Under the pieces are notes generated by a model. The model was not told the DNA's origin, ran no database searches, and was given only the letters and a program-made list of their open reading frames with translations. From IMG/VR virus record IMGVR_UViG_3300044846_000719, positions 32,657 to 96,656 of that record: a stretch of DNA of 64,000 nt. The stretch is one strand, 5' to 3'. The translations under genes were made by a program, and so were the position numbers. Positions 16,901 through 40,778 of this stretch are shown in pieces. Each line of letters opens with the position of its first letter. Within the stretch, counting starts at the first letter, position 1. The stretch comes from a virus.

Positions 16901-19900
16901 GCTTTTTGTTCAGCATCATATTCTTTAATACTAGAATTTATTAATGTGAGTAACTCTGAAAAAGTATTAAATTCAGGATTATCAATAAACTTCTTTGTGT
17001 TAAAGCCATTGTTCTTGTTTATAAAATCTATAACTAAAGATCCACTAGGACTAACATAGAGATTTAAAAATTTACCACGTTCTTTTAATGGTAATGCAAT
17101 GAATAATTTATTATTTATATTTTCTTTATTCCAGATATCATTATATTCTTCTGCCTCTATCTTTTCTTCAGCATTTACATTTTCTTTTTTAGTTAACTCT
17201 ATTCGGGCTTTAATATCTGAAACAAATGTATTAAGATCTTCATTAGATAAAACAGGTGTAGTTAATTCTACAAATCTAATTTTACCATTAGGAAGTTTAA
17301 CTACAGCTACGTATCTACCATACTTTAATAAACCATCAACACCAGCATCATTATATCTAACCGCATCAATCTCTTTTTCTGTGGACTCTAAAATATCTAT
17401 ATCAATATCACTTATAGGAGAACCCGGAATAGTAATAATAGATCCTTTGTTGTATTTATTTTCTTTATTAATTACATAAATGGCACCATTAATAGTATTA
17501 CTACTTAGTTCAGAAAACTTAGGTCTAGCTTCAGTATTATATAATAAATCATATGATCCAAAACCAACATTAATCTTTGCTACCTTTTTAAGATCTTCAT
17601 AAGGAATTTCCACTGAAGTATTTTTACCTAATTTAGATTTTAAATAATTTAATAATGCAATTTTATTTCTATAATCACCTTTAATTTTCGTAACTGCTTG
17701 AGGGTATTTACCATCCTTTAAATAGAATGCTTGCTTAACTCTATCAGCATTTATTCTATCAATAGAAATTGGATTACCCTGAGTATCTAAAAATTGAAAA
17801 GATGTAGGATTAGGTAAGTAACCAATTTCTTCACCATTAAGTACTAATGCAATAGCATAAGAATCTGTAAAGAATCCAGCTGATTGATTTTCTTTTTGGT
17901 CAGGTAATCTAATATAATCATACCTTTGAGGTGATTTATTTAGATTAGTAAATCTAATACTTAATCCCTCTTGTAATTGTTCTATAGGAGTATCTCTTAA
18001 AAGGTTGCTTAAGCGTGCTGTTGCATCTTTCTGAGACTCATCCCCTATTCTTTTACCCCAAGCTCTATTTAATGTATTTATGTCATCTAAACGTGAAGTA
18101 TACTGTTTCTTTTCTATAGGAGCTCTCTCTAATTTAAATCCTGCAAAAGATGGAATAGGAAGAATAGCACCAGTTTTAACATTTTTAAGTTTAAGGTTAG
18201 AGCCAGCAGCAATTTCTGCAGGATAAGAAAGAACTATATACTCATTATTTTTATTATCAGATATAATCTGACCATTAACCAATGGAGTATTATCAAATAC
18301 AAACTGCTTTTTATTTTTAGCTAAATAATCACCAATAGCTTTCTGAGCTATTTGTGCATCCTCTAAATTAAAAAATGCATCTGCCTCTAATTTTGAAAAT
18401 TCAATTGGCCTATCAGTATTGTTAATAGCTAACTCACCATCATTAGTTTTTACAAAGTATACTTCTGTTTTAACACCATTTACTATTCCATTTATTTTTG
18501 TGATAAATACACCATTATATCCAGCAGATACAATTGATTCACCCTCTTGTAGTACATCCTTGTTATATTGATTCTCATCTCTTTGTTGAATAAATATATC
18601 TGAGAATGTAACATTGTTTTTATTTAATGTATCATATACCAATGGAGTTCTAGCATTAGCTCTTAACCATTCTGTAAATTCAGGTTTAGCTTCATCAGTA
18701 ATAGCATCATATGCTGCCTCTAATGTAGTAATAGCATTTATAATACCGGCACCTTTTTTAGTAACCACAAATTCTTCAAAAGAGATTGGTACTTCTACCT
18801 CTCTTAATGATTTTAAATAATCATCATATGCTCTACGTACAACAGTCTGAGTAAATTCACTTACATCTTCAATATCTTCTGAACCAGGGTCTTCTTCATC
18901 TTCTGTAGTATCAGTACCAAAGTCATTAGATTTAGCTGTCTTTTCAGTTTTAGCACGTTTTTCTTCAGCTTCTTTAATTTGTTTATAAGCTTCAAACACC
19001 ACCATGATATCTCTATAGATTTCATCTGTTGGTTTAACTGCACCAATTACAGAATCATGATAGAAAGTTGTTGGAATTTTTCCAGTCTTAGCAAACTCAA
19101 CACCCTGGTCTGGATCTACTAGTACACCCATGCCTTGTAAAGTTGCTAATACATTATTCTTCTCAAGCATTTCAATATGCTTTTCATATACATCACTTGA
19201 TGTAACATCTTTCTTACGTTGCTCAAATGCTTCAGTAAGGACCTTAGAAGTTCTCTCAGTTAACTCTTTAAAACGTACAGGATCAAGTAAGTAATTAATA
19301 GATTGCTCTAATAACTGACTTCTTAAGTCAAGTACTTTATAATCAAATAACTGATCAAATGTATTCTCTAATACAGTGTCTTGAATATATGCAGGATTAC
19401 CATCTTTTTCATTTGCAAACTTAATATAGTTTACATACTTCTTATAAAGATTAGATACCTTACGTTTATCATAAGTACCATCTTTCTTTAAGTTAAGATC
19501 ATATTGCTCTTTAAAAGATTTTAATAACTCACGCTTCTTAGCTTTGTTATCCATATCTTTCTTAAGAGCTAGATCAGTAATTTCTCCAACTTGAGATAAT
19601 TCAATATCTAAAATATCTAACTCTCTATTTAAAGAGTTATCAGAGAATAAGATATCAAAATCAGAGGCTGCCATATTTTTTAATGCACCACTTGCTTTAG
19701 CAGTCTCTAATAATGTATTCCTTCTTTCTATAGCTCTTGTATTAGTAAACATATGATACATAACCATACGCTTACTATTTTCCCAAGCTCTAAAGTTTAT
19801 CTCTTCATTTCTTCTCTCTGTACTTCCAGCTTTATATAACTCTGGTTTAAAAGGATTAGCACCATACTTATCATTTAGTATTTCATTACTTTCAGATAAT

Positions 19901-24795: not shown

Positions 24796-27700
24796 TTAGT
24801 TATCATTTAAACCAAAGAATTTAGCTAGTCTATCAGCATCAACCTCTTTTTTAGATTTGTTACGATTGTTAGCTAATTTCATAGCTACCTCATATTTATC
24901 TTTAGGAGATAATGCTTTAAAGTATGGATCTTCTTTTTCTAAGTCAGAAATAAAACTAGATAATCCAGCTTTACCAGATTGTGTAGATGAACCAGAAAAC
25001 TGTCTTCCGGCAGGATTAAAGTTTAACATACCACCAGTTCTAGGATCAATCATATAATCAGAGACAAGACTATTCATAACTTGTGTTTTAGCTCTATTAG
25101 TAAATGCAGGAACTAAACCACTCTGTACAAGATTAGTGTTGGCTTGATTTACAGAGTTATCATATTGTTGACTAGCAATAGCAAGTCCAGCTAAATAATC
25201 CTGAGTACTTTTTTGATTAGCTAATTTACCCTGATTGGTTATTTGCTTATTAGCTTGTTCAAATTGATTAGCTACACCAACGTTTAAGTTATTATATCTA
25301 GCTTCAATGTTAGCAGCATTAGCTAAACCCCTACCTTGTAGATCTGAGAATCTTGCATTAAATGCTTGTGGTCCAGTAAACTGTGCTAAATTCTGAGCAG
25401 CAATGTTAACCATCTCAGCATTATTAGCTAACTCTCTGTTAGGATCATAATAAGTAGGCTTCATAAGTTCTGGCTCATACTGACTCATTGTAGGATTGTA
25501 CTGATTAATATTTAATCTATTAGCTAATCCTAATCCAGTATTCATAACATCCTGAATATAAAAATCATTACGTTTATATTTTGGAGTAGTATCTATATCT
25601 TCTTGATAATAATTATATCCTCCTTCTTCTGGTTTTGGTTCTGGTTCTTTTCTTAATTTAGCAATCTGTCTATTAGAAGTATTACCAAAAACAGCATCTT
25701 CCTCACTAACATTTAATTTTCCTAAATATGATTTCTCATCTGTAACTCCTTCAGGTGTCCATCTAAATCGTTTTAATTTTGTAGAAATTACAGGATCATT
25801 ACTTATAGAAAGTTTACCAAGAATTTGATATCCTGATTGCCATTTGGCAATTTCTGGTTTATCTAAAGGATTAAGACCTAACTTTTTAATAGCTGCCTCA
25901 TATACAACATTTTCTTTACCAAACTTTTTAACTCTATCCCAGTCTTCACTATTTAAAATATCTTCAGGATAATTTGCTGTAAGAGCATATGCATGACGTT
26001 GGTTTTCAAGATAATTTTTAACAAATTCATCAGAGCTTCCTGTAAATTTATCTTTAGGATGCGCATTGTTATAATCAGTTAGCAATCTTTCTTTAATTAC
26101 TGGATCTTCTAATGTTGTTTTAAGTTGATCATAGTCAGCTGTATAATCACCATATTGTCCTATAAGAAGATCAGCACCAAGAACTGGGTTATAATTTTCA
26201 ATCTCAGATAGAACAGAATATTCTGTTGCACCTGGTGCAGCAACTGGTGCTCTTTGTGCAGGACGAGGTTGATTTATAACAGGAGTTTGTATTCTTTGTT
26301 GAACTGGAGGCATAAACTGATTAAATGCTCCTGACACATTACCTAAGTTAAAACCAGTTTGAGCTTTAGGCATACCACCATACATTGCAGTTTGCATACC
26401 TTCTGATGGATTAACCGGCATCATATCTTGAGGATTAACTCCAATCTTCTGTAAGTAAGGATGTGCAATACTAGGAATACCTTGTGGGAATCCTTTCATC
26501 TCTTCTTGTATAAGAGCTAATTGACCTAACTTAGTTGTATAGTTATCAAGCATTCTTTGAGCAGTTACTTTTTCAATAGTATCAGAGTTAGGATCTGCTA
26601 ATATTTTTCTATATGTAGGATCATTTAAATTAAACTTCTTAGAGACATCAGCAATTACATAACCTTTCTTACTAGGATTTAATCCAAGCATGTCTTGATA
26701 ATCACTATTTTTTATTTTCATGCTCTTTTGTTTTGTAAAAATAAAAGATCCTTCAGGAGCTTGATTACCATCTAATGGTACACCACCTTCAGCATTTGGA
26801 TCTTTACTATGATTAGGTCCATTAATTGTATATAATTGTGGAATACCATCATCACCAGGTCTTACAATTGTTTCACCACCTTCAGCCTCTAATACAGCTG
26901 TAGATCTAGGTGCAGCAGTCATACTTTGATTTACAACAGTTTCTGGTTCACCTTTAGTAGCACCACTAAATATGTTCATCATATATGCTGAGTTACCATA
27001 CAACTGATTAACAGCTTTAGCATTTTGAGTACCACCATATTGAGCTTGTGGCATACTTGTGATTCTTATTTTTCTTTTCATTTCTCCACCCATTTGGGCC
27101 TCTTTAAATTTACTACCAGATACATATTCATTAGGTCTAAAATATGGACCTATACCAGGTGTGTTAATTAAATAATCTCCTTTGTTACCAGAATAGTCCT
27201 CCGGTCTTGGATTGAATAAGTTATCTGCTAGTAATTGATCTGTAAGATTTGCTTGAGCATTTCTATCTTGAATCTTTCTAGCAACAGAACTAAATACATC
27301 TGTAGTAGCTAGTAAAGCAGGACCAATATAAGGATTACCTTTTTGTTGTTGAGGTTTTGTTTTATTACCTGGTATCTGATAATCCCAAGATTGTTGTGCT
27401 GATTTTTTAAAATCACTTGGCATTTCTAATGGTGTACCCATTGGTAATCCTGGAGTTAAATTAGCTTGTCCTTGATAAACATCAGCTGGTAAAAAATTAG
27501 CAAATGATGTACCTCTTATATTAGAAACATTCTCATTTATTTTAGTTCCTGTATTAAAAGATCCTGTAGTATTTGGATCACCCTGATATACATCAGCATA
27601 AAAAGAAGGATTTGTATTTGTTTCAAAACTTGGCATTCCTACATTGAAATTACCAGTAGTGTTTGGATTACCAGCATATACATCTGCAGCAATTGTAGGA

Positions 27701-27846
27701 GAAAAATATGGAAGGTCTTGAAGTGGATTACCAAACATACCTTGATTCTTATACCATATGGCTTTTTGCTCTGGTGTTAAAACGATAGGAGCTTCTTTAC
27801 CCGTTTGAGCTTTTGGTAAACTCTTAACCCTTACTTTTCTTTTCAT
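24796..27846 (-). CDS. Virion cargo protein with di-glycine linkers
   Basis: 1016 aa; EAEGGET and GPNH...EGGVPL motifs typical of crAss-like cargo proteins; KAQTG, AQMGG, AQYGG and AMYGG repeats; Q/N/A-rich C-terminal helices. Confidence 0.6.
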   Translation of the reverse strand: MKRKVRVKSLPKAQTGKEAPIVLTPEQKAIWYKNQGMFGNPLQDLPYFSPTIAADVYAGNPNTTGNFNVGMPSFETNTNPSFYADVYQGDPNTTGSFNTGTKINENVSNIRGTSFANFLPADVYQGQANLTPGLPMGTPLEMPSDFKKSAQQSWDYQIPGNKTKPQQQKGNPYIGPALLATTDVFSSVARKIQDRNAQANLTDQLLADNLFNPRPEDYSGNKGDYLINTPGIGPYFRPNEYVSGSKFKEAQMGGEMKRKIRITSMPQAQYGGTQNAKAVNQLYGNSAYMMNIFSGATKGEPETVVNQSMTAAPRSTAVLEAEGGETIVRPGDDGIPQLYTINGPNHSKDPNAEGGVPLDGNQAPEGSFIFTKQKSMKIKNSDYQDMLGLNPSKKGYVIADVSKKFNLNDPTYRKILADPNSDTIEKVTAQRMLDNYTTKLGQLALIQEEMKGFPQGIPSIAHPYLQKIGVNPQDMMPVNPSEGMQTAMYGGMPKAQTGFNLGNVSGAFNQFMPPVQQRIQTPVINQPRPAQRAPVAAPGATEYSVLSEIENYNPVLGADLLIGQYGDYTADYDQLKTTLEDPVIKERLLTDYNNAHPKDKFTGSSDEFVKNYLENQRHAYALTANYPEDILNSEDWDRVKKFGKENVVYEAAIKKLGLNPLDKPEIAKWQSGYQILGKLSISNDPVISTKLKRFRWTPEGVTDEKSYLGKLNVSEEDAVFGNTSNRQIAKLRKEPEPKPEEGGYNYYQEDIDTTPKYKRNDFYIQDVMNTGLGLANRLNINQYNPTMSQYEPELMKPTYYDPNRELANNAEMVNIAAQNLAQFTGPQAFNARFSDLQGRGLANAANIEARYNNLNVGVANQFEQANKQITNQGKLANQKSTQDYLAGLAIASQQYDNSVNQANTNLVQSGLVPAFTNRAKTQVMNSLVSDYMIDPRTGGMLNFNPAGRQFSGSSTQSGKAGLSSFISDLEKEDPYFKALSPKDKYEVAMKLANNRNKSKKEVDADRLAKFFGLNDN

Positions 27847-27851
27847 GTCAA

Positions 27852-30161
27852 TTAATCTAAATACTCAATACCATAACCCTGACTAATAAGATTCTGAATC
27901 TCATTGTCATCTAATTCTAACATTTGTCCTTCAGTCATACCACCCATTTGTTTTTTCCAACCAGCAGCATTTCTAGCAAAGTTAGCTCTTTTTACTTGTG
28001 TAGAACTATAGTCTTCTTTATTTGCAAGTACTTTACTAGCAAACTCTTGTACACCCATACCAGCTCTATTAGCTGAAGCAGTAAACTTTCCTTTGTTTGC
28101 AGGATTAATATTTATACCACCATAAGCCATTTGAGGAGATTGTCCTTGTTGAATAGCCTGCATAATTTGCTGAATAGCTTGTTGCTGTTCTTCTGGAGAC
28201 ATTGCCTGAAGTTGCTTAATGATTTGTTGAGGATCTGTCTGTGTCATTTGAGCATACATCTGTATAGCCTGCATAATCTGATCTTCTACCTGACCTTGAC
28301 CACCTTGCTGATACATGTTACCACCTTTCATCATGTTGTACATAGCATCCATATCCATTTGACCACCATACATATCAGTACTACCACCATAATTAAATCT
28401 TCCAACTTGTTGATCAAATGCAGTCTTCTCTAAGTTAGTACCTTGATTTAATACCATACCTGTGTTAGGATCTACGGCTTGACTAAATGTAGTACCTGAA
28501 GAAATATTTCCTTTAGGATTACTAAATATCATGCGTCCTGTTTGATCAGTGACTGATTGAGGATTAGAAGATTGATAATAAGAATAAATATCGTTACGTG
28601 ATGGCATATCTTTTACACCTGTTACACCAGAACTCTTAAGATCTTGAAGTTGTCGATTATAATACTGTTCAAATCTAGGATCACTGCCTACACCTGGAGA
28701 CATAAATGTATTAATAGGTGCACTACCAATATCACCACCTTCTGCCATGTTAGATAAAATTTTAGCCTGTACATATTCTGGTAGTGCCTGAAACCCAGGA
28801 TTATTAGTACCACCATATGCACGTTTACCCATATCCCATTTCTGCCTCGTTGTCGGATCAGGGGTGTTGTGTTGTGGGTTTTCACTGTAATACCTATTCT
28901 TTCCACGGGCTAATCTAGCGTCAGCTGCAATCATACCAATAGTCCCTGCGATACTAGCAGCAATTTCACCAATGTCTAAAGCTTTTTTATTTCTAGCTTT
29001 TTTATCTTCAGCATCAGTAATAGCCTTAAATGGAACTTCTTTTACTGGACCACCTTCTTCTGGTTGTCCACCTTGTGCCCATGTACCAAATCTTTTGTGC
29101 CAATATAGAGGAGAGAAAGGATCTGTAGCTTTAGCTGAATTCTTACCACCCATTCTATTCCAAAAATTATCTTTACGCTTATTTGAACCATGCTGGCTAA
29201 AATCTTTCATACCAACATAACCACCGTGTACAATTTTATATTTGTCACCTTTCTTAGCTAGCACCATCCACTTCTTACCGGCTCTATCTGATTTTCTTTT
29301 AGCACCTACTTTAGTAAAACCTCTACTCTTATAGCGCTGAGGAATGCCGCCCATTTTCATTTGTTCCATTTCCCCCATATTCATATCAGCATCTTCCTCT
29401 TCTTCGATACCTCCTGATTCTTCATTGTACTGCATATAATCAGAAACACTATTTAAGTAGTCATCTGCCAATGTAATCTTACTAGCTACCCAAGGCTCAA
29501 TTTCACTATCAGCATTTACAAATTTTTGTAAGTTAGATAGTCTATCATGCATTGCCATGATCTGACCAATAGCCATTTCACCACCTTCATCATAATAGTT
29601 ATCACGCATCATCATCCCGGTACCACCCATTTGCATAGCAGGCATACCCACAAGATTCATAGCTAACTTAGCCATTTGCATTTTATCACCACCACCATTA
29701 TCTGAGCCACCACCCATATTTTGAGCAGCATTATCTACATTTTTACCAATAGCCATAGCACCATTATAAAGCATATCACCAATAGCACCCATAGGATTGT
29801 TTTGTTCATCCTGTTGAGCTTTCTGCATATATGCCATCATATTCTGATCATAGTTAGGATATTGGAATATCTGCTGGTCTTGTAAACCACCACCGGTCTG
29901 TGCTTTTCTATATCCACCACCACGACTCTTATATGTCTTAACTAACCATGCTGAACCATAAGCTGAAGGCCACGTATCAAATTTAGATTTAGCCTCTGAT
30001 TTAACACGAGAATATAACCCAGGATTAGTTGGAACATTACCACCGCTTTTCATTTCTACAGCTTGTGGATAGGCTTTAAAAAATGCTTCTTCTGTAGGGA
30101 ACATATTATAGAATTCCTTCTCAGATTTAACACCAGCCATTTTTAAAAATTTATCTTTCAT
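27852..30161 (-). CDS. Modular virion cargo polyprotein-like protein (about 14 x-x-x-GG linkers)
   Basis: Start probably MKDKFLK at 30161. Linkers MKSGG, MQMGG, YDEGG, MKMGG, WAQGG, RAYGG, MAEGG, FNYGG, YQQGG, MAYGG and KQMGG separate small basic or helical modules. Confidence 0.65.
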   Translation of the reverse strand: MKDKFLKMAGVKSEKEFYNMFPTEEAFFKAYPQAVEMKSGGNVPTNPGLYSRVKSEAKSKFDTWPSAYGSAWLVKTYKSRGGGYRKAQTGGGLQDQQIFQYPNYDQNMMAYMQKAQQDEQNNPMGAIGDMLYNGAMAIGKNVDNAAQNMGGGSDNGGGDKMQMAKLAMNLVGMPAMQMGGTGMMMRDNYYDEGGEMAIGQIMAMHDRLSNLQKFVNADSEIEPWVASKITLADDYLNSVSDYMQYNEESGGIEEEEDADMNMGEMEQMKMGGIPQRYKSRGFTKVGAKRKSDRAGKKWMVLAKKGDKYKIVHGGYVGMKDFSQHGSNKRKDNFWNRMGGKNSAKATDPFSPLYWHKRFGTWAQGGQPEEGGPVKEVPFKAITDAEDKKARNKKALDIGEIAASIAGTIGMIAADARLARGKNRYYSENPQHNTPDPTTRQKWDMGKRAYGGTNNPGFQALPEYVQAKILSNMAEGGDIGSAPINTFMSPGVGSDPRFEQYYNRQLQDLKSSGVTGVKDMPSRNDIYSYYQSSNPQSVTDQTGRMIFSNPKGNISSGTTFSQAVDPNTGMVLNQGTNLEKTAFDQQVGRFNYGGSTDMYGGQMDMDAMYNMMKGGNMYQQGGQGQVEDQIMQAIQMYAQMTQTDPQQIIKQLQAMSPEEQQQAIQQIMQAIQQGQSPQMAYGGININPANKGKFTASANRAGMGVQEFASKVLANKEDYSSTQVKRANFARNAAGWKKQMGGMTEGQMLELDDNEIQNLISQGYGIEYLD

Positions 30162-30166
30162 TTTAG

Positions 30167-33100
30167 TTATTTGTATTTGTTTAGCCAACTAGTTTGACCA
30201 CCTTTTTTTTGTTCTTGTAATTGAGATGCTGCAGCTGCTCCTACTGCTAATGGAGCTACTGCCGGAAGTCTATTTAAAACATCTGTAAGTAATTTACTAT
30301 TTGCTTTAGTAGGCTCCATAAAATCAAAAATTCTAGTATTACTTGAAAAGTTACCAGTATTTTTATTATAGACACCCATAGGATTCTTTTTAAAGTATTT
30401 ATAAGCATTCTGTATTTGTTGTTGATTTATAGGAGTATAATAATCAGGAATAAATCCTTTTTGAAACATACTCTCTCTTAATTCATTTGCAAATGCTGTA
30501 GGCTCACTACCTGAACTTCCTTTCATAAAATATTTATAACCCCTTTGATCACTAGGTTTTAATTGTTTTTTAGGAACAATATTTTTTAAACCTGTATCTA
30601 AAGATAATTTTCTTCCTCTTTGTAAAACATGTCCAATTTCATGCATTTCTGTTGGTACGTCACCTACAAAATTATAACCCATACCTATTTCACCAGGAAT
30701 AGATTTACTATAATTTGGTGTAGGTTTTTTTAAATTAAGAGTTCCAGAACTTTTTACAAATTGATCATACAAAGAGGCTGGTCGATGATAAGCATTATTA
30801 TATAAATAACTATCTTCTACAAAAGGATTTGTTAAACCAGTACCTAAAAAATTAGTATTTGCGTATTCTGTAGCTTCTTTATTTACGTTCTTAACATTTT
30901 TTAATTCTTCAATTCTTGCTTTTGCATTAATTTTAGCCACTCTATCTATAACACTTAAATCAGTATCTGTATTATCAAATAGATATGCTTTTTCTTGTTC
31001 AACAAGTCTTCTAAATCCTTCTTCAGATTCTAAATCAGCAACTCTTTTACCTACTGAATTATCTAAACTTCCAACTCCTTTTTCTAATTGTCTAAAAAAA
31101 GCATGTTCTGATATAGTATTAGGTTTGAGTTTATTAACATTAGCAACCGAAGATACATCTCCATACTGTATTCCAGAAACTGTATTAACATTATCTAAAC
31201 TAACTGGTCTACCTTTTTGTAAACTTAAAGCTAATCTAGGATTTTTCTTTATTTGAGATTCTAATAAGTTACCTGCTTGTTGAGATAAACCTTTTATAAA
31301 TTTCTGCCCCGTTCTTGTTAAACCGGCACCAACGTATGATAAAGGATCAGTTACTGCATTAACACCAAATGCTAAATATGGATTCTGAATATTCATTGCT
31401 TCAGATGGCATCTGTACTTTACCAGTTGCTCCATATACAGAGGCTAATTGTGGTGCACTAAACGGAGCCATTATTGTTTCCATCATAGCAGTACCTATAC
31501 CACCAGGACCAGATGCATCATTGGGTTGCTTATACCAATCTCTACCTCCAGTAGCATTATTAACTCGTCTAGCCCACTGCTCCATAAAATCATCAGATCT
31601 TTCATTATAAGGATCTAGACCAATTGCCTTTTCTCCTTGATTAATAAATCCTCTTAACTTATCTGACCATGAACGTTTCTTACGTATATCAACAGCTTGC
31701 ATCCTATCAGGATTCTGTTCAGTAGAAGTTTCAGCACCACCTGTTGGATACTTATTAAGCCATCCACCATACTTTGCATACTTAGTAGAACTTTTATTAT
31801 CATTCTTAACAATCCCATTAAGTAAATGTATTATTCTTTCATCAGATGTTTTAAAAGTAGGTGTTTCTTTTGTATTCTTAAGATAGGGACTAAAAGGATC
31901 ACTAATGTCATAGTTATCATTAAGTGTATCAATATTATTTATTCCCTCTATTGAATTATTTCTATTATATAACTGTTCAATATTATTTTTTCCTTGATTT
32001 TCAAATACTGGAGTAAATCTATTAATAATAAAATTATCAGGATATTCTTTTTTATATTTATTCCAAATTTTAGGTGTTAATTTTTCTCCTTTAGTATAAT
32101 CATAAAAACCTTTTTTGCGCATATCTTGTTTTAAAGCATATGCATCAGACAATAATTCATCTTCCTTTCTATCGTTATTAAGAGTAGTACTATAATAATT
32201 ATTAAATCCTTCTGTATCTGTGATTCCCATCTCAGCTAATTTAGTTCTATTAAATAGAAAAACTTCAGGATTATTTTTATTTAAATAATGACTAGTTTCA
32301 TGACTCATAATAGTACTAGGATCATTTTTATATGTATACAAATCTATAGCGGTTGGATCAACACTAATCTTTTGATCTTTAATGTAACCTTTATTTTTTA
32401 ATTGTTTATTATAATCTGAAGAATAAGGAACTACAAAACTATTATTTTTAACTCTAGAGTTTGTATATGTATAACTATTTGGTATTCCTATTGCAGATTC
32501 TTCTGGATTTTTAGAATTATCAAATCCAATTTTTAATTCAGGAAAATTAAAAGGAAATGCTGGTGGAATATAACGTTCATTAAAAGTATTTGTAACAGGA
32601 TCATATTTTGATCTAACTCCTGTAATTCTTGGATTATCATATTCCTGATCAGTTACAAAAGAATTATAATTCTCAGGATCTGGTTGTGGACCATATTCTT
32701 TTTTAGCATTTTTTAAATCATTTCTTAAATATGCTTCTGGAACTGTATCACCTATTCTTTTTCTATTAGCCTCATACCAATCTTTTAAACCAGAAATTTC
32801 TTCATTAAATTGATTAGTATATTCCTGTACTGATTTTCCTGGAGGAGCTTCACCAGCCTCTTGATATTTACTTAACCAACCACCATACTTTTTATTTTCT
32901 GGATAGTTATAACTATAACCTTTACCTTCAGTTACTTTAGCATTAGTTATATCTAAGTTATTTGCAGTCTTCCAGTCTTGGTATTCTTTTTCAGTTCTAA
33001 AAGCTTTCTTAGACCCATCTTGTAATGTAACACCAATATTATACTCTCTAGCCATTCCACCATTAGGAGTATACATATCTCTATCTATATTAGATACAAC

Positions 33101-36100
33101 TAAAGAAGGTTGATAGATAATAGGTTGAACTGGTTCTGGAAATAAAATTTCAGTAGATAAACCTTTGTTATAATCACTCTTATTAGGAAAATTATCATAA
33201 CCTGTAGGTTGTATACCTTTTATATATTCTAATTTTTGTTTTTTATTTTGTTTAACACCATCTCTAACTAATCCATAACAATTAATATCTTTACAAAAGG
33301 ATTTTTTTAATTCAGCATTACTTCTATAGAAAACATCTTTATTTGGAATAAAGAAGTTACTATTATGTAAAGATGCACTATCATTAAATCTTTGTAATCT
33401 AGGATCATTAGGATCTGAAGTATACATAGGAGCTCTACCACCACCAACTTGAAATTCATCTAACCATCCTCCATCTTTTAATTGATTAATGTCTACTCCT
33501 TGAAATGGTATATCACCAACAGATCCATACTTCTGCAAAGCCTTAGCTTTGTTTTCATTTGACATATAGTTAAACTGTTGAATAATAGGTTTATTATAAC
33601 CAATCTTTTTTACAGGTAATTCTATTGGAGTAACTGGTAGAGGAGTTTGTACTACATCAGGAATAATTTCTGGTTTATTATAAATAGGTTGTGATACCTT
33701 AGTTAATATTGATTTTTTAGATGGTGTTAGTTTTGTGTTTACTCCATAATATATAGGTTGAACAGGTTTTTTATAGAGAATTGGTGCCCTATCTTTTAAA
33801 TATTTACCTAATCCACTTGCATCACTAATCTCTGCGTCACCACGAAGATTATTTAAGGATGTATTACCCTTTGGCAAACCTAATTGTCTTTCATATAGCG
33901 TTATATTACCATAACTACCACGGTAACCTAATGCCATCTGGGAAATTGGAGCTATTTTACCAGAAATAAAATTATATGGTGGAGGAGATGTTTCTAGACG
34001 ACCAATAGATAATCCAGCATTTTTAACTACATTAATATATTTTTGTTTATCTTGTTCTCCTTTATTATATAAATTTAAACTATCTCTATAACTACCTATT
34101 CTAGGATCTCTTGAGTTTGATGTATAGATTGGACGTCTTACACCACCATCTTGATATTGATCTAACCACCCGCCATATTTTTTACCAGGAATATATTCTG
34201 TTATAGGTGAATTATTGTAATGAATAAGATATTCTCCATTATTAAAAGCACTAAGATCAAGACCCATCCTTTTTGCCATTTGCTTTTTTAAAATTTGATC
34301 ATCTACTGTACCCCACTCATTTTTTTTATTTTTGGGATTATTGTTTGCATCTTTTAAAAATGAGTCTACTGGAAAATAATCAACTAAACTAAATTTAGAA
34401 GGGTCTTGTGCTATATAAGTTTCATGCTCGTCATAATCATAGTCAGGTCTATTTGTAGGTAATCCTGCTTGTGCTAATCTAGCAGCATATATTGATTCTG
34501 GAATTTTAGGAGCAAAATCATCATTATCTTCACTATCCCAATATCTTTCTTTATATCCTAAATCTACATTATGTAGATTAGCCCAAGACATAATTTCTGG
34601 ATTGTTACGCATTTCAACTTGCATCTGTTCTGCACGATTCCATATTTGATCAGGAAGTTCTCTTGTTAATCCGTCTACAGTATCAGGTGAATACTTATTT
34701 TTTGCTAAATAATCATAAAAAGTTTTATTATTTAAAGAAAGATCATTTTCAATCTTATCTTTAGTAGGATAATTTACTAAATTATTATGATCAGTTTTTA
34801 ATACATACGCATATTTACCAGGTCCATAAACATTAATTGCAGAACTATTTTTATAATCTTTATCACCATCTCTAAGATTTGTTAACCATCTTCTATTTGG
34901 AGAATAACCATCGTCTTTAACTAAAGGAAAATTACCAAATGATTTACCAACTACTTCTGGTAAAACATATTCTTGTTCTAAAGACGCTTGATAGTTTGAA
35001 GGTTTAGCTTCATTATATTTAAAAGTAAGTTTAGGATTGTTTATTAATTTATTATCTATAGGATAATATGGAGCTGCAACTTGTCTAAATTCTTCTACTG
35101 TAGGATTTAAATTTTTTATAGGTAATTTTGGATTTACCCAAAAATTATCTCTAGTACTATTATCTAATAAATATGGATGTATATTTATATCAGGTTTATA
35201 TAATAAATTACCTTCATTGTCATATTCATATGTAGGATTATCACTTACCTTTTTTCTTTTAACATTAATATTAACACCCTGCATTCTTTCAGGATTTTGT
35301 TCTGTTGAAGTTTCACCACCAACTGGATACTGATCTAACCAAGTCTCACCACCATCTTCTCTACGCTTATGATTATAATCTATACGCTTACCTGAAGTCT
35401 TCTCTCTTTTAAATCTAGCTTTCTCTGCAGAAGACATCTCTGATGTAGTTTTAGGAGTTGTTTCATTTACTCTTCTAGATGGTCTGCATGCAGGATATGG
35501 TCTACCATCTTTATCTTTTCCTGATCTACCACATGTTTTACCTGTCTTAACATCCACCCATTTTTCATCAAACCACTGACTCAAACCGCCTTTACCAAAT
35601 TCTTCTAATACTCCAGTACCCTTTTTATAACTTTTAGCAAATCTTCTAGCTTGTCTATCATTAGGAAACTCAATATACTGACCACTCTGATTTGCATAAT
35701 CATATGCATTATCTCCTAAGTATTGTAAAGTACCATCAGGCATTTGTACAACTGTAGGATATACACGACCATCACCACTTGCCATAAAGTGTGTGGCAGG
35801 ATACTGCTGACCGGGTATCATTATACTTGGTGTATTAGGTTGATACATTCTTTGAACAAAGTTTAGATCTTTATTCTCATTAAGAATTTTATCTATCTTT
35901 CTCTTAGACATACCACCAAACTGCATCTGAGGATACTCAGTTACATAGTTACCGGGGAATGTATATTCTCCACCCGGCATCATCATTTGCTGATTACCTA
36001 AGTCATCTATACCAAGTACTGGATAGTTAACTCCCTTCATTGTAATGTTAGAAGAAGGTATGACAGTAACCTCACCGGGATATGCCCACTGCCCTAAAGG

Positions 36101-36127
36101 AGATATTATAGGTTTTTTTCTAGCCAT
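30167..36127 (-). CDS. Modular virion cargo polyprotein-like protein with GGWLxxY linkers and two zincin motifs
   Basis: 1986 aa; six GG(x)WL[DNS][QKE][YF] repeats; HETSH (~32290) and HEIGH (~30630). Confidence 0.65.
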   Translation of the reverse strand: MARKKPIISPLGQWAYPGEVTVIPSSNITMKGVNYPVLGIDDLGNQQMMMPGGEYTFPGNYVTEYPQMQFGGMSKRKIDKILNENKDLNFVQRMYQPNTPSIMIPGQQYPATHFMASGDGRVYPTVVQMPDGTLQYLGDNAYDYANQSGQYIEFPNDRQARRFAKSYKKGTGVLEEFGKGGLSQWFDEKWVDVKTGKTCGRSGKDKDGRPYPACRPSRRVNETTPKTTSEMSSAEKARFKREKTSGKRIDYNHKRREDGGETWLDQYPVGGETSTEQNPERMQGVNINVKRKKVSDNPTYEYDNEGNLLYKPDINIHPYLLDNSTRDNFWVNPKLPIKNLNPTVEEFRQVAAPYYPIDNKLINNPKLTFKYNEAKPSNYQASLEQEYVLPEVVGKSFGNFPLVKDDGYSPNRRWLTNLRDGDKDYKNSSAINVYGPGKYAYVLKTDHNNLVNYPTKDKIENDLSLNNKTFYDYLAKNKYSPDTVDGLTRELPDQIWNRAEQMQVEMRNNPEIMSWANLHNVDLGYKERYWDSEDNDDFAPKIPESIYAARLAQAGLPTNRPDYDYDEHETYIAQDPSKFSLVDYFPVDSFLKDANNNPKNKKNEWGTVDDQILKKQMAKRMGLDLSAFNNGEYLIHYNNSPITEYIPGKKYGGWLDQYQDGGVRRPIYTSNSRDPRIGSYRDSLNLYNKGEQDKQKYINVVKNAGLSIGRLETSPPPYNFISGKIAPISQMALGYRGSYGNITLYERQLGLPKGNTSLNNLRGDAEISDASGLGKYLKDRAPILYKKPVQPIYYGVNTKLTPSKKSILTKVSQPIYNKPEIIPDVVQTPLPVTPIELPVKKIGYNKPIIQQFNYMSNENKAKALQKYGSVGDIPFQGVDINQLKDGGWLDEFQVGGGRAPMYTSDPNDPRLQRFNDSASLHNSNFFIPNKDVFYRSNAELKKSFCKDINCYGLVRDGVKQNKKQKLEYIKGIQPTGYDNFPNKSDYNKGLSTEILFPEPVQPIIYQPSLVVSNIDRDMYTPNGGMAREYNIGVTLQDGSKKAFRTEKEYQDWKTANNLDITNAKVTEGKGYSYNYPENKKYGGWLSKYQEAGEAPPGKSVQEYTNQFNEEISGLKDWYEANRKRIGDTVPEAYLRNDLKNAKKEYGPQPDPENYNSFVTDQEYDNPRITGVRSKYDPVTNTFNERYIPPAFPFNFPELKIGFDNSKNPEESAIGIPNSYTYTNSRVKNNSFVVPYSSDYNKQLKNKGYIKDQKISVDPTAIDLYTYKNDPSTIMSHETSHYLNKNNPEVFLFNRTKLAEMGITDTEGFNNYYSTTLNNDRKEDELLSDAYALKQDMRKKGFYDYTKGEKLTPKIWNKYKKEYPDNFIINRFTPVFENQGKNNIEQLYNRNNSIEGINNIDTLNDNYDISDPFSPYLKNTKETPTFKTSDERIIHLLNGIVKNDNKSSTKYAKYGGWLNKYPTGGAETSTEQNPDRMQAVDIRKKRSWSDKLRGFINQGEKAIGLDPYNERSDDFMEQWARRVNNATGGRDWYKQPNDASGPGGIGTAMMETIMAPFSAPQLASVYGATGKVQMPSEAMNIQNPYLAFGVNAVTDPLSYVGAGLTRTGQKFIKGLSQQAGNLLESQIKKNPRLALSLQKGRPVSLDNVNTVSGIQYGDVSSVANVNKLKPNTISEHAFFRQLEKGVGSLDNSVGKRVADLESEEGFRRLVEQEKAYLFDNTDTDLSVIDRVAKINAKARIEELKNVKNVNKEATEYANTNFLGTGLTNPFVEDSYLYNNAYHRPASLYDQFVKSSGTLNLKKPTPNYSKSIPGEIGMGYNFVGDVPTEMHEIGHVLQRGRKLSLDTGLKNIVPKKQLKPSDQRGYKYFMKGSSGSEPTAFANELRESMFQKGFIPDYYTPINQQQIQNAYKYFKKNPMGVYNKNTGNFSSNTRIFDFMEPTKANSKLLTDVLNRLPAVAPLAVGAAAASQLQEQKKGGQTSWLNKYK

Positions 36128-36131
36128 TTTA

Positions 36132-39100
36132 TTACCTAAATGAAGCTAACAATTTATTATTACTGAGCTTCAAAAAGAACTTAGATGAGCCAGAAACAAG
36201 TTTCTTTAATAGAACCTTATTAATATAGTGTCTAAATTTCTTTCTTTGTGTAGCTCCCTTATTATAATTTACGTAAGTTGCGTTAATATTCCTAATGTAA
36301 CCGTTAGCTTCAGTGACCCACATAGGTGTAGTATTAGCTGAAGTTTGACCTCTATCATTTGTAATATCCCAGAATTCATTAAACCTATATTTCTGTTCTA
36401 CTTTAGAGAAGAGTATATCAATAGAGCTAGTATTAATGATAGGATAGTTATTAATAGCGTAAGGATTATTAAGTGGTGAAAGATTTAAAATTAAGTCACC
36501 GGATATTTGTTCTGTATTATATATAACAGCCCTATCAAAATTCTCATTAAGTAAATGATTATAGTCTAAACAGTTCTTAGAATATTTATAACACTCTAAG
36601 ATGTATTCTATTGATCTTGTAGTTGTAACGGTTTGACCTTGGTTCTGTACATATTCTACTTCAAATGGATAATTAACTCCGTAGTAATTACAGAATGAAT
36701 CACATACTAGGTTATGTTTCCAGATACCATCATCTTTAACTGTCATATAGTAAGTCTTACTAGACATTACTAAGTTAGGTTGCCAGTCATGGAATGAAAT
36801 AAATGCTTTAGCTTTAGGGTCATAACTTACTGTCCAGGAAGCATTCTCAAAATATATAGGATCACCTAATGTAATTTGATATCCCGGAAAATCTAAAAAT
36901 TCAAACTTATTACCAAGTCCAACTAAATACTTTACTCTTCCTATATACTCAGATTTAAGTTTAAAGTCACGTTTACAAAAGAATACTATCTCGTTAATAT
37001 TATCATATGTTGTTTGACAACCAATACCTATAATAGTATTATCAAGCATTGTAGTATCTATATTTGGGAAGTCTACAAGTAATGCATAAGGACTATATTG
37101 AGAGAACCACCACTTCATACCGGATTTAGAAATATCCTGTAGACCTTGACCGTAAGAGAATATCTTACCTTGGTTTTGACTCATATAGAATAATCCTGCT
37201 GGTGTATTAATTACAGATAATTTACTCTGACAACTACCATATTCAAATTCACTATCTGCATTAGATAGATTCTGTAATGGTTGTGCATTAAATAACTGAC
37301 CATCACCAATAGATAATTTAGTACCACCGTTAAGATCTAAAGTTTCTACACCCTGGAATAACATTGGGGCACCATGTTCTAGCATAATTACGGCTCCTGT
37401 TTTACCAACAGAACGCATACTTGTAACTCTAGAATCAAAGTCATAATAGTTATTAGCTAGGAACTGTCTCCAGTTATCTTTACGTAACTCATACTGTTGT
37501 TGTAAAGAATAGATAACTCTTGTAGGATATGTTGTAAAGCAACCTACGTTATCTGGATTATAAATCCTTGGTTGTATATTACCCCAAGATACAAAATTTG
37601 TAAAGTGCTTACTAATGCTTAATGCGTAGTCATACTTCTGATAGTTTGTATCTTTGATATAAGGAGTACGGAACATTTCCTCATAGTCAGTATATGTATT
37701 AAAGTCATAATGTCTTTTACCAGGATCATCTCCATAATCTCTATATGCTAAGTTAAGTTCTGATTCTACATAGAAATCTCTAATACCAGAATTAAACAAA
37801 TACATATATGCAAATCTTACTGAAAATGCACCAGATATTATTCTTCTATCTAAGTGATGAAAGTCATTAGGTAATGCTTGAGTTCCACCAAATATGCCTT
37901 CAAATAAATCAGCAGCATTATACTTACTAGTATCCATCCAATATCTTGGATAAGGAAGCATGTTATATAATCTATAATCCCACTCAGTATTATCAGGAAG
38001 ATCCTGCATCCACTGAGAAAAATAAAAGAATGTAGACTTCTCAGTATAACGGTTAACATACATGTCACCACCAAAGATTATATTGGATGTGGCTTTCTGT
38101 GTATATTGTAATGTCCAAAGATCAATACATCCTACAGGTATTTGTCGGATTGCATCTAACTGACCGTACTGATTATCATTCTTAATTTTTAATGCAGCAT
38201 AGTGAGCAGAAGTAACTGAGTTTTGTAACTTAGTTGGTTCCTTCCAAATATCATTATCTGCAGTTCTACCATGATCTCCTCTTGCAATATCACCAATAGT
38301 AAATAATGTATTATCAATTACTGAAGGATCAGCAATACCACTATTAGTTGTAAGTGTTACAGTACTAGCCCGAAATAAGTTATTAATTCTGTAAGTAGTA
38401 TCATAATCTTGAATAACTGGATCTACATATAATGACTTAATAATCTCTCTTCTTCTATTACCAATTGGAGAGGATATAAAATTATTATAAAAACCACGTG
38501 ATATATATTGATAAGCAAACTGTCTTTTACCACTAGCTGCTTCTATACCTTCAATTACATTTTGTGTTGATTCAATATAATAGTAAGAAAATAAAATTAC
38601 ATAACCAACAGCAGCACCAACAATAGCAGTAGCAGCTCCAGCTATAGGACCTGCTGAAGTACCAGTTATTCCACCAAAAGCGGCAAAGTTTCCAGTAATT
38701 ACTGCAACTTTTGCTGCCGCTTCAACAAGATTACCACCAAATACTGCAGAAATTGTAGCAGCAGATCCTATAGCAATACCAGCAAAGTTAGCAATAACAG
38801 CAGCAAAATCCGTAATAAACTTATCTTTAGGATGATTGTCTACAGGCCTAAAGTTACCTTCCACATTACCCCATAACTCACCATACACTTTTAATTCAGT
38901 AGCTGATAAGAAAGGATTTCGGAATGTGGTTTCAGGTGAGTGAAAAGAGAACATGTCTTTTCTATAAGAACTAAATAATCTTACATCATTAGGAACAGCA
39001 TCTCTATAAGCGCCACCACGTGTTTGTTTTCCTGTAACTACATCTACACCTAAAAAAGGATCCGGAGATAAAGGATTGTACGGATAATTTACGTACAAAC

Positions 39101-40778
39101 CAGTCTTACTAGAAATAGTATCAGGAATATCATATTCCCTCATATTATTAATAAGACCTTTTGCAATGATAGATCTATTACCCTCTCTTGTACCCCTTAA
39201 GATTTCATACCCAATAATATTACGGATATAGTTAGTCGCTAAATCTTTTGGGAATTCAATATTAGAGAACTCTACACCAAGTAAAGTAAGAGTATTGTTT
39301 GCTGTATTATAATTAGAGATGATAATATCATCCGGCATTTTGTGGTGCCTAATATTCTTAGCACATAAATTAGCCCATATATCTGGTTTATTATCAGGAT
39401 ACTTTTCTGTAGACTCCCAATATGCCATCTCACCTCTTGCTATAATTACACCACCGTCATCTAATGTTCCGGTTGCTGGTACTCTTGTAGCAGTATTGTT
39501 TACTTGCCAGTTTTGTTCTGAACCAAAGTTTACGATGTGATCAGGACCAGCGTTATTATTAAGCTCTCCGGGTTTTGGTGAACGTCCTGGTATATGGTAG
39601 CTAGATGACTTGTCACCTGTGTTATATATCCATCGTATAAAAAAGCTATATACTTCATCTCTTAAAAATGTTGGTTTGTTTCCGCCATCATAATAATATG
39701 TGGCCGGGTATTCTACACCAACCCATCTAGTAACAATATTATTAGCTAATGGTTGGTAATTAAAATCTTCATATGTGGTTGGACCAATCCTAATCAAATA
39801 ATCATTAACATTATACATTGCCACAGATTTCTCATATGACGGTGTACGTAATGGTATTTGCTCTAATGGTACGGTAACCAATGTAGGATCTACTGCATCT
39901 AATGAAATAGTAGTTGACTGCGTAGAGTAGTAACCAATCTTTCTAGCAACGGCTTGTTGATTAACAAAACCAATTAATACTAATTCAAATTCATCATAGT
40001 CTGCATCAAGGCCGGTAAATGTAATATCTAAAGAACCATTAGCATTATCATGTGTCCACAATGCTTGTACATTAGAGATTGATAAATAGTCTGTTACTCT
40101 TATTCCGTTAACAGAGTAAGCCATTGTAGCCTGATAAGAACCATTTAACAATGTACCTAGACCATAACCCTTAGTAACTTGAATACAAGGTGTATTAGCA
40201 TATGCAGCTAGTCTTAGTTTGTCGCAATCAATTACACCGGTAGATACTTCATCTTTACATGGGCCTGGAAGAATATCTGTTGTAATGTAAGGAACACCAT
40301 CCCAGTTACCTACAGGATAAGGCCATAAATCTTCATTACCAATATTCATTGTTCTGGTAGGATTAAATCCATCATCCCAATATAAGTTCCATTTACAATC
40401 TGAACTATATTTAGATACACCAGTTATAGGGTAATCTTTTGAAAAGTTAAAACATTTGTTTTGTGGATCATTATAGATAGTATAATAATCACAAGTATTC
40501 TCATCAAATAAACCAATCTCTGAACTAAAAATATTAGTGGAGTAAATAGCCCATTTACCATTACCAATACTAACTGTACCAATAATAGTATATGGTGCTC
40601 TAGCACATAATACGTTACTAGGCTCATTACCTAATACACCAACATCTCCAGATGGAGAATTGTTAACGGCATTCCTTGCATGTGTCCAGTAACCCTCACC
40701 TATAAAAGTATCACTTACGTCTTTAAGTAGACCTTTATTATAGAGTTCGGTGTGTATTAAACTAGTTTTACCATCCAT
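36132..40778 (-). CDS. Tail stabilisation / muzzle protein (crAss-like, P22 gp10-related)
   Basis: 1548 aa; KGLLKD..WTHARNAV..GVLGNEPSN N-terminus, beta-propeller-like C-terminus with WTVSYDP..FISFHDWQP; located after the ring proteins. Confidence 0.8.
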   Translation of the reverse strand: MDGKTSLIHTELYNKGLLKDVSDTFIGEGYWTHARNAVNNSPSGDVGVLGNEPSNVLCARAPYTIIGTVSIGNGKWAIYSTNIFSSEIGLFDENTCDYYTIYNDPQNKCFNFSKDYPITGVSKYSSDCKWNLYWDDGFNPTRTMNIGNEDLWPYPVGNWDGVPYITTDILPGPCKDEVSTGVIDCDKLRLAAYANTPCIQVTKGYGLGTLLNGSYQATMAYSVNGIRVTDYLSISNVQALWTHDNANGSLDITFTGLDADYDEFELVLIGFVNQQAVARKIGYYSTQSTTISLDAVDPTLVTVPLEQIPLRTPSYEKSVAMYNVNDYLIRIGPTTYEDFNYQPLANNIVTRWVGVEYPATYYYDGGNKPTFLRDEVYSFFIRWIYNTGDKSSSYHIPGRSPKPGELNNNAGPDHIVNFGSEQNWQVNNTATRVPATGTLDDGGVIIARGEMAYWESTEKYPDNKPDIWANLCAKNIRHHKMPDDIIISNYNTANNTLTLLGVEFSNIEFPKDLATNYIRNIIGYEILRGTREGNRSIIAKGLINNMREYDIPDTISSKTGLYVNYPYNPLSPDPFLGVDVVTGKQTRGGAYRDAVPNDVRLFSSYRKDMFSFHSPETTFRNPFLSATELKVYGELWGNVEGNFRPVDNHPKDKFITDFAAVIANFAGIAIGSAATISAVFGGNLVEAAAKVAVITGNFAAFGGITGTSAGPIAGAATAIVGAAVGYVILFSYYYIESTQNVIEGIEAASGKRQFAYQYISRGFYNNFISSPIGNRRREIIKSLYVDPVIQDYDTTYRINNLFRASTVTLTTNSGIADPSVIDNTLFTIGDIARGDHGRTADNDIWKEPTKLQNSVTSAHYAALKIKNDNQYGQLDAIRQIPVGCIDLWTLQYTQKATSNIIFGGDMYVNRYTEKSTFFYFSQWMQDLPDNTEWDYRLYNMLPYPRYWMDTSKYNAADLFEGIFGGTQALPNDFHHLDRRIISGAFSVRFAYMYLFNSGIRDFYVESELNLAYRDYGDDPGKRHYDFNTYTDYEEMFRTPYIKDTNYQKYDYALSISKHFTNFVSWGNIQPRIYNPDNVGCFTTYPTRVIYSLQQQYELRKDNWRQFLANNYYDFDSRVTSMRSVGKTGAVIMLEHGAPMLFQGVETLDLNGGTKLSIGDGQLFNAQPLQNLSNADSEFEYGSCQSKLSVINTPAGLFYMSQNQGKIFSYGQGLQDISKSGMKWWFSQYSPYALLVDFPNIDTTMLDNTIIGIGCQTTYDNINEIVFFCKRDFKLKSEYIGRVKYLVGLGNKFEFLDFPGYQITLGDPIYFENASWTVSYDPKAKAFISFHDWQPNLVMSSKTYYMTVKDDGIWKHNLVCDSFCNYYGVNYPFEVEYVQNQGQTVTTTRSIEYILECYKYSKNCLDYNHLLNENFDRAVIYNTEQISGDLILNLSPLNNPYAINNYPIINTSSIDILFSKVEQKYRFNEFWDITNDRGQTSANTTPMWVTEANGYIRNINATYVNYNKGATQRKKFRHYINKVLLKKLVSGSSKFFLKLSNNKLLASFR

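Follow-up and report, generated by a model that had tools for sequence, protein, structure and literature searches.

A polyvalent-like protein with recurrent GGWLxxY peptides in the cargo slot of a crAss-like phage

Results

Here we describe P0001, a modular protein encoded in a stretch of 64,000 nucleotides (nt) of viral DNA, hereafter the window, which covers positions 32,657 to 96,656 of the IMG/VR record IMGVR_UViG_3300044846_000719. The record as a whole spans 96.6 kilobases (kb), is estimated to be 81% complete and carries nearly all of its genes on the minus strand. The P0001 gene (30167..36127, -) lies directly after a crassvirus muzzle gene, and its stop-free translation of 1986 amino acids (aa) carries GG(x0-3)WLxxY peptides at six places, with the Trp at aa 263, 654, 888, 1084, 1456 and 1981. 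By motif scanning of the translation, the five internal copies, hereafter linkers, were placed at aa 259-271 (linker 1, GGETWLDQYPVGG; 35315..35353, -), aa 649-662 (linker 2, KKYGGWLDQYQDGG; 34142..34183, -), aa 884-896 (linker 3, KDGGWLDEFQVGG; 33440..33478, -), aa 1079-1092 (linker 4, KKYGGWLSKYQEAG; 32852..32893, -) and aa 1452-1464 (linker 5, KYGGWLNKYPTGG; 31736..31774, -). The sixth copy forms a C-terminal tag (KKGGQTSWLNKYK; 30170..30208, -), placed by the motif scan together with the C-termini of homologues, in which the motif is followed by Lys and the stop codon (...GGQTSWLNKYK-stop).

These peptides are confined to the P0001 gene. Searching the six reading frames of the window with a looser version of the linker pattern gave no match in a real open reading frame (ORF) besides this gene, and the strict pattern at the DNA level was found in this gene only across the 96.6-kb genome. 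Among 20,000 shuffles of the P0001 sequence, 99.4% contained no match and none contained more than two, compared with six in the real protein. Because of these scans and the shuffle test, we regard the motif as specific to P0001 and not a product of chance.

The linkers delimit five modules downstream of an N-terminal domain. Module C (aa 272-648; 34184..35314, -), with the head ETSTEQNPERMQ, belongs to a family of 38 segments and contains no known domain. Module D1 (aa 663-883; 33479..34141, -) begins with PIYTSNSRDPR and has an inner tail KPVQPIYY and an H...T sub-cassette, and module D2 (aa 897-1078; 32894..33439, -) begins with PMYTSDPNDPR, has a body unlike that of D1 and carries a small pre-linker domain modelled at a predicted local distance difference test (pLDDT) score of ~70. 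Module A (aa 1093-1451; 31775..32851, -) carries HETSH at aa 1276-1280 (nt 32288-32302). Module B consists of a head (aa 1465-1610; 31298..31735, -) with ETSTEQNPDRMQ and Gly/Ala-rich, mildly hydrophobic stretches, which is common to two alternative bodies, and of a zincin-like body (aa 1611-1973; 30209..31297, -) with HEIGH at aa 1829-1833 (nt 30629-30643) and FANELRE downstream.

BLASTP found no relationship among the modules except in two short heads: the first 25 aa of modules B and C are 72% identical (ETSTEQNPxRMQ), and the first 30 aa of D1 and D2 are 50% identical (PxYTSxxxDPR). A sequence-only reading of this stretch had claimed six linker copies, mostly unrelated segments between them, reused segment heads and HExxH motifs in two segments, and this observation is correct in every checked point, as all six copies were recovered at their places, the two pairs of heads are shared as described and the HExxH motifs begin at aa 1276 and aa 1829. 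A smaller cassette, PxYTSxxxDPR followed by ~90-140 variable residues and KKPVQPxxY, recurs within D-type modules, sometimes in tandem, and was seen in D1, D2 and the locus L017 and also in the zinc-ribbon family described below.

The two HExxH modules were studied further through their families and predicted structures. HE(T/I)(S/G)H is conserved in 9 of 9 members of the module A family, and both HEIGH and FANELRE are conserved in all 27 members with the body type of module B. AlphaFold2 models of two halves of P0001 had mean pLDDT values of 51 and 44, with confident prediction only for aa ~1643-1958 (pLDDT 70-89), within the module B body, and a few small pieces; the low values may reflect shallow alignments, or proteins meant to travel unfolded. 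In the model of module B, HEIGH lies on a predicted helix (738-748 in model numbering) and FANELRE ~45 residues downstream, also on a helix, in agreement with the gluzincin pattern of a helical HExxH and a second helix bearing a Glu. The best VIA-align match of aa ~1643-1958 was PepO (4iuw; Z 5.8, 195 residues aligned, root-mean-square deviation 5.0), and the next matches were all zinc metallopeptidases, including Porphyromonas gingivalis PepO, Zmp1, ECE-1, neprilysin, a putative metal hydrolase, PPEP-2/3, thermolysin and lethal factor; these Z-scores of 5.8-3.5 are all below the level of a safe fold match. We therefore describe module B as zincin-like with moderate confidence, and module A, judged by its motif, would be only an HExxH module.

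Searches for known domains returned little else. Pfam and PHROGs left almost all modules of P0001 and ten representative homologues blank, and for the HExxH modules Pfam gave sub-cut-off matches only (M91 at 16.8 bits in P0001; DUF6782 and SprT-like in single family members). Profile searches with two module alignments against PDB sequences gave nothing credible, Foldseek searches with the P0001 models gave nothing at E <= 0.001 against either the PDB or viral models, and VIA-align on the N-terminal half of P0001 gave short helical matches only. Two leads among the viral models, of high probability and weak E-value, were a 230-aa protein of crAss-like phage cr125_1 and a 'structural protein' of Cellulophaga phage phi14:2. 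An LPD23 (PF18838) assignment for both HExxH modules, hinted at by a protein atlas (0.81-0.85), was dropped, since a direct search of the genome with this family found nothing. No convincing transmembrane helix was found in P0001 either, the highest hydropathy over 19 residues being 1.27.

Subsequently, we compared P0001 with its relatives, of which a search of 5.8 billion proteins recovered 83 long and 56 shorter ones, most of them highly similar over a small part only. By cutting the proteins at the motif and clustering the pieces, we found 56 different architectures among 70 complete homologues. The N-terminal domain comes first in every complete homologue, two module families always come last and the other modules float in position; what stays constant throughout is the N-terminal domain, together with the linkers and the ...WLNKYK C-terminus. 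Nearly all relatives contain three to six linkers and end in GG[QE]T[GS]WLNKYK, and Pfam detects PG_binding_1 in members of this family.

The variation is also seen between closely related genomes. The gene occupying the slot encodes 509 aa (L007), 702 aa (L004), 1391 aa (L005) or 1810 aa (L002/L003) where the contig closely resembles the window in its ring proteins (94-95% identity) and its muzzle protein (~80%), and 1094 aa in L006, with ring proteins ~70% identical; in L001 it encodes 1171 aa, and the contig begins at the gene and thus has no upstream flank for comparison. These patterns agree with the expectation of the sequence-only reading that module number and identity would vary between orthologues (509-1986 aa between nearly identical flanks) around a constant N-terminal domain and constant linkers. 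The ends of BLAST alignments against P0001 lie within 20 aa of a linker in 54% of cases, against an expected 13%. Further breakpoints lie at the edges of a 109-aa N-terminal insertion, at ~aa 990 and at ~aa 1610, the last of which divides the common head of module B from its two alternative bodies. Together these comparisons of sequence indicate that modules are exchanged between related phages by recombination. In 50,697 records of cultured phages, the DUF5872 piece was all that a protein search with P0001 recovered, from unrelated podoviruses, and a DNA search with the gene found no match.

We then considered at which level the linker is conserved. Taken together, 239 internal linkers give the consensus K-K-Y-G-G-W-L-[DN]-x-Y-Q-x-G-G. 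Conservation is highest in the C-terminal copy, where W, L and Y are invariant in all 71 proteins that end in the motif and the stop codon comes one to two residues past the Tyr. At the DNA level, 45-nt linker copies have a mean identity of 59% and share exact runs of mostly 6-12 nt, with others of 9-20 nt, and the proportions of Gly, Leu and Tyr codons in 75 linkers from both families equal those in the rest of the genes. As linker codons drift like the background, selection acts on the peptide and not on the DNA. We thus rejected a DNA-level recombination anchor as the sole explanation of linker conservation, for which codon usage gives no sign, and short DNA identities may still help exchange. 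The recombination anchor proposed by the sequence-only reading is accordingly retained in part: breakpoints do cluster at linkers, and the choice among synonymous codons is as variable there as elsewhere in the gene.

The same arrangement is found in a second crAss-like family, comprising 31 loci, in which a 35-aa zinc ribbon is at once followed by GGWLDKY and by one to four further units, with the end GGWLxKY and total lengths of 240-2042 aa. At one annotated locus, which belongs to a crAss-like phage, the gene immediately follows the muzzle genes. These proteins contain the same ~60-aa core as the P0001 N-terminus, located further along the chain, and Pfam detects ART-PolyVal (PF18760) in three of them, SLT in two, YkuD in one and DUF6973 in one; ART-PolyVal, SLT and YkuD are above cut-off in these relatives and not in P0001. 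The zinc-ribbon relative P0132 had no match in the 50,697 phage records. More distant lineages retain the core only and have different internal repeats at the corresponding places, namely KYEFKDGGLVKYQ three times in L011, ELSDEEIEEY..RGGYIVEEL twice in L008 and EYAKGGYILEEL twice in L009.

The conserved core of P0001, aligned at aa 1-66 (GQWxYPGE...ITMKGVNYPVLGIDDLGNQQMMMPG.EY.FPG..VTE.P; 35930..36127, -), is the sole part kept in all lineages. It is followed by the 109-aa insertion (aa 67-175; 35603..35929, -), which is missing from most homologues, and by a match to Pfam DUF5872 (PF19197; aa 145-247; 35387..35695, -) that scores 46 bits, above the curated cut-off of 27.5, and covers positions 23-113 of the 116 in the profile. 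DUF5872 was matched in two pieces at this locus, with profile positions 1-43 found in the next gene (aa 53-95; 29900-30030, -). A profile of the N-terminal domain (core/DUF5872) recovered 4098 clusters among 1.84 billion representatives. The core/DUF5872 proteins (P0142-P0267) fall into tail classes ending in ...GYxFEII, ...RGGRVPRYKANLYR, ...YGGKVYSTxTPKGL, ...RVKIKSLPKNWKTK and ...GKYVFVKT, and some of them carry the core at the C-terminal rather than the N-terminal end. The GGWL class is the only one whose tail is routinely used inside the chain too (118 of 121 proteins ending in the tag). Complex prediction of the N-terminal 70 residues with ring proteins 1 and 2 returned 'no support' (score 0.00), which carries no weight either way.

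The genes surrounding P0001 place it, by position, in a predicted virion block. Upstream lie the genes for crassvirus ring protein 2, ring protein 1 and muzzle (PF25702, PF24228 and PF25731), with the muzzle gene at 36132..40778 (-), and downstream lie ORFs of 778, 1016 and 912 aa, then one of 4687 aa and then one of 1763 aa. By position and size, the 4687-aa ORF (7915-21978, -) is virion-RNA-polymerase-like; it is a single ORF at the place of three virion RNA polymerase proteins of crAss001. P0001 thus occupies the cargo protein 1 slot, directly downstream of the muzzle and upstream of the virion RNA polymerase block, in an order that is maintained between muzzle and polymerase block in 14 related viral contigs and matches gp43-gp50 of crAss001. 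In crAss001, the order is muzzle (gp44), cargo protein 1 (gp45), cargo protein 2 (gp46) and polymerase (gp47, gp49 and gp50), all of which were found in virions, with gp45 and gp46 established as virion cargo by mass spectrometry and cryo-electron microscopy (PMC10172136).

Several further features were observed in these neighbours. The 778-aa downstream protein (27852..30188, -), a Gly-Gly-rich member of the cargo block with the N-part of DUF5872 and with DUF5754, contains 25 Gly-Gly dipeptides against 10.4 expected, mainly as [MY]GG, and its C-terminus (...ELDDNEIQNLISQGYGIEYLD) resembles the internal repeats of the ELSDEEIEEY..RGGYIVEEL type in the slot gene of L008 and L009. The 1016-aa protein (24796-27846, -) starts with MKRKVRVKSLPKAQTG and repeats YGGMPKAQTG at aa 493, both conserved in its orthologues. 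The slot gene of L011 and L012 ends in ...RKVKIKSLPR, resembling the start of their own 1016-aa orthologue, and because of this resemblance the boundary between the 778-aa and 1016-aa genes has the appearance of a linker interrupted by a stop and a start codon. Between the ring protein 1 and muzzle genes lies a 164-aa endonuclease VII gene (PF02945; 40778-41272, -). A mobile nuclease gene seems to have been inserted here recently, since in the close relatives L002-L007 the ring protein 1 and muzzle genes abut with no endonuclease VII ORF between them.

Finally, P0001 was compared with gp45, the protein that occupies the same slot in crAss001. Both genes lie directly after the muzzle gene and both proteins have a basic N-terminus. 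In gp45, FGGWLN at residues 426-431 is followed by TQGG, so that in both proteins a GGWL peptide precedes Q-G-G, in gp45 at the edge of a portal-bound domain. In the crAss001 structures (Bayfield et al. 2023, PMC10172136; PDB 7QOG, 7QOI, 7QOJ, 7QOL and 8CKB), the ordered domain of gp45 spans residues 425-552 and binds the portal wing; it corresponds to the Pfam domain PF25725 (crAss_CARG1) at 424-555. FGGWLN provides the first ordered residues of this domain, and the cryo-electron microscopy model continues through TQGG. Eight gut crassviruses have GGWL, GGWL, GGPI, GGEL, GGWV, GGIL, GGFL and GGYL at this site, and thus in seven of the eight GG and two hydrophobic residues precede the portal-binding domain (cr111 has GGEL, and DAC17 has GGFLDDYDKP). 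Aromatic-x-x-G-G peptides also follow the portal-binding domain in the cargo-1 proteins of gut crassviruses, and peptides of this kind lie on either side of it in gut relatives. Among these cargo-1 proteins (gp45, L049:11988-14516; L050-L056), several have LGGYL...GGGIHIKKxNRGKF further upstream. On the other hand, gp45 has 842 aa and one ordered domain and is not known as modular, whereas P0001 has 1986 aa and five exchangeable modules. P0001 and gp45 have no significant sequence similarity, hhalign of the P0001 N-terminal domain against gp45 was not significant, and Pfam did not match PF25725 in P0001 at E up to 1.

Discussion

The above analyses are, with roughly even confidence on our part, best accounted for by a polyvalent cargo protein that a crAss-like phage encodes in its cargo-1 slot, and whose recurrent tag stays uncut and has a specific partner. 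The constant N-terminal domain, whose first 66 residues are found in every related lineage, probably fixes the protein in the particle. Behind it follows a variable string of unrelated modules exchanged by recombination, here C, D twice and two HExxH modules, one with a putative zincin-like body, and in relatives predicted peptidoglycan-binding, lytic transglycosylase, L,D-transpeptidase and ADP-ribosyltransferase domains. The short peptide K-K-Y-G-G-W-L-[DN]-x-Y-Q-x-G-G, closing each module and the whole chain, would serve as a unit-end tag, most likely as an uncut, glycine-hinged docking handle recognised by a conserved virion component during loading or ejection. If the tag is recognised in this way, any module bearing it could be slotted in. 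We infer the presence of P0001 in the virion from the position of its gene only, and its ejection into the host, the enzymatic activities of its modules and the partner of the tag are likewise proposals. A more far-reaching version, which we hold to be possible and distinctly less probable, is that GGWLxxY is the portable cargo tag of a plug-and-play delivery system, by which units ending in the tag would be loaded into crAss-like virions and injected, with the effector set reshuffled by recombination at the tag, and of which the GG-hydrophobic peptides of gp45 would be a degenerate form.

Several points weigh against the uncut, partner-bound tag. The cargo-1 (PF25725) and cargo-2 (PF25712) families were unmatched in the genome, the former at E up to 10. 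Aligned by hhalign, the conserved core and the CARG1 alignment fell into a plausible register at a probability of 0.6% and E of 0.089, which is not significant, and the GGWL of gp45 could be convergent or due to chance. The models of P0001 are mostly of low confidence, and none of the structural Z-scores reaches a safe fold match. Finally, the Gly pairs flanking the motif, the zincin-like modules and the precedent of polyvalent proteins fit a protease site equally well.

A protease-processed polyprotein is clearly less probable to us than the uncut tag. The linker, or the Q-x-G-G that follows it, would here be cut in the capsid or after ejection by a zincin module or by a zincin domain of the virion RNA polymerase, freeing effectors that end in ...WLxxY. 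Gly-Gly on both sides of the motif and the commonness of HExxH modules in the family agree with such cutting, zincin peptidases have been proposed to process polyvalent proteins (PMC5512222), and a cut past the Tyr would give internal units the same end as the natural C-terminus; the 778-aa gene also ends, and the 1016-aa gene begins, with sequence resembling the two halves of slot-gene linkers from other lineages. Yet many members lack both types of HExxH module (for example those with architectures 0-6-5 and 0-3-7), the best conserved copy lies at the extreme C-terminus, where cutting would be purposeless, and in some proteins the motif stands at the very start or after just 35 residues. The similar peptide of gp45, moreover, lies inside a continuously modelled segment of the mature virion, and this counts against the cleavage signal that the sequence-only reading had offered as one option. 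As the gp45 peptide is ordered and the chain continuous through it, an uncut handle or hinge is favoured over cutting, provided that the two peptides are truly equivalent. A passive hinge that doubles as a recombination junction, that is, a flexible spacer with no specific partner whose short DNA identity permits module swaps, would be in keeping with the homology breakpoints at linkers, with the exact shared runs of 9-20 nt among linker DNA copies and with the quite different internal repeats at the same places in other lineages (KYEFKDGGLVKYQ and EYAKGGYILEEL). We consider it improbable, as synonymous linker positions are conserved no more than the background, a spacer would not hold W, L and Y invariant in two families nor keep the C-terminal copy at a fixed distance from the stop codon, and breakpoints also occur at other short conserved peptides within modules.

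It is also conceivable, and to our judgement the least probable of these explanations, that P0001 is not an internal cargo at all. It would then be a structural protein of the outer tail or one acting on the host surface, with modules that work on the envelope from outside, or else an early protein absent from virions. The cell-wall-directed SLT, YkuD and PG_binding_1 domains of relatives would suit such a role, and the Pfam domain of cargo-1 is undetected. The position between the muzzle and the virion-polymerase block is nevertheless kept in 14 of 14 contigs and in the second lineage, and the N-terminus of P0001 is neither signal peptide-like nor strongly hydrophobic (the top hydropathy of the protein being the above-mentioned 1.27). 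Large stretches are predicted to have no stable structure, as for proteins threaded through the tail, and the ART-PolyVal modules point to a cytoplasmic target.

Portable loading peptides have precedents. In phage T4, the internal proteins and Alt, an injected ADP-ribosyltransferase, carry an N-terminal capsid targeting sequence that is removed by the prohead protease, and encapsulin cargo carries a C-terminal cargo-loading peptide once per cargo. For loading into an HK97-type shell, the unrelated cargo proteins of both systems need no more than a short portable peptide bordered by flexible residues. The P0001 tag differs in being repeated along one chain, and the likeness is a working analogy and not a membership. 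A second comparison is with polymorphic toxins (Rhs, CDI and related systems), which combine a constant N-terminus with exchangeable downstream cassettes and recombine at short conserved junction peptides. In these toxins only the C-terminal tip varies, and it comes with a cognate immunity gene, whereas the modules of the P0001 family vary at every position, with up to five per chain, and their carrier would be the virion. No pairing with immunity genes was found at this locus, where P0001 is one uninterrupted ORF with the conserved 778-aa gene immediately next to it and no immunity-like ORFs.

The closest described group is that of polyvalent proteins, large chains of 2-15 unrelated domains in many architectures that occur in phages and conjugative elements (Iyer, Burroughs, Anand, de Souza and Aravind 2017; PMC5512222). 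Zincin-like HExxH domains are the commonest among them, ART-PolyVal and lysozyme/transglycosylase domains also occur, and the proteins are proposed to reach the host cell together with the phage or element DNA (PMC5512222). P0001 resembles them in its five mutually unrelated modules, in the 56 architectures among 70 complete homologues and in the ART-PolyVal domains of its sister family, and the description that fits it best is that of a polyvalent protein, as the term is used in PMC5512222, encoded in the cargo-1 slot of a crassvirus. The two differ in that PMC5512222 has no conserved inter-domain delimiter, and not even the word 'linker', whereas the units of P0001 and its chain end all carry one peptide. 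The strict delimiter peptide closing each unit and the chain is therefore new relative to PMC5512222, and our literature search found no published description of a GGWL linker in such a phage protein. The sequence-only reading had supposed that nothing of this kind was described as a system; this needs qualification, as multidomain polyvalent proteins with zincins were described in 2017 (PMC5512222), and it stands for the delimiter peptide, which was not found in the literature searched. P0001 also differs from the described polyvalent proteins in that most modules of its family match no described domain and its gene is a slot of hypervariable content flanked by conserved virion genes.

Crassviruses are among the most abundant phages known. 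The P0001 family gives a concrete handle on how megadaltons of crassvirus cargo protein are chosen, loaded and ejected, as each putative cargo unit bears the short peptide and the content of the slot differs even among otherwise nearly identical phages. A protease site at this peptide would be the first such site defined for the processing of polyvalent proteins. If instead the peptide is a loading or ejection signal, it would define the rule by which crassviruses arm their particles, and dozens of uncharacterised module families would become candidate injected effectors, including anti-defence proteins.

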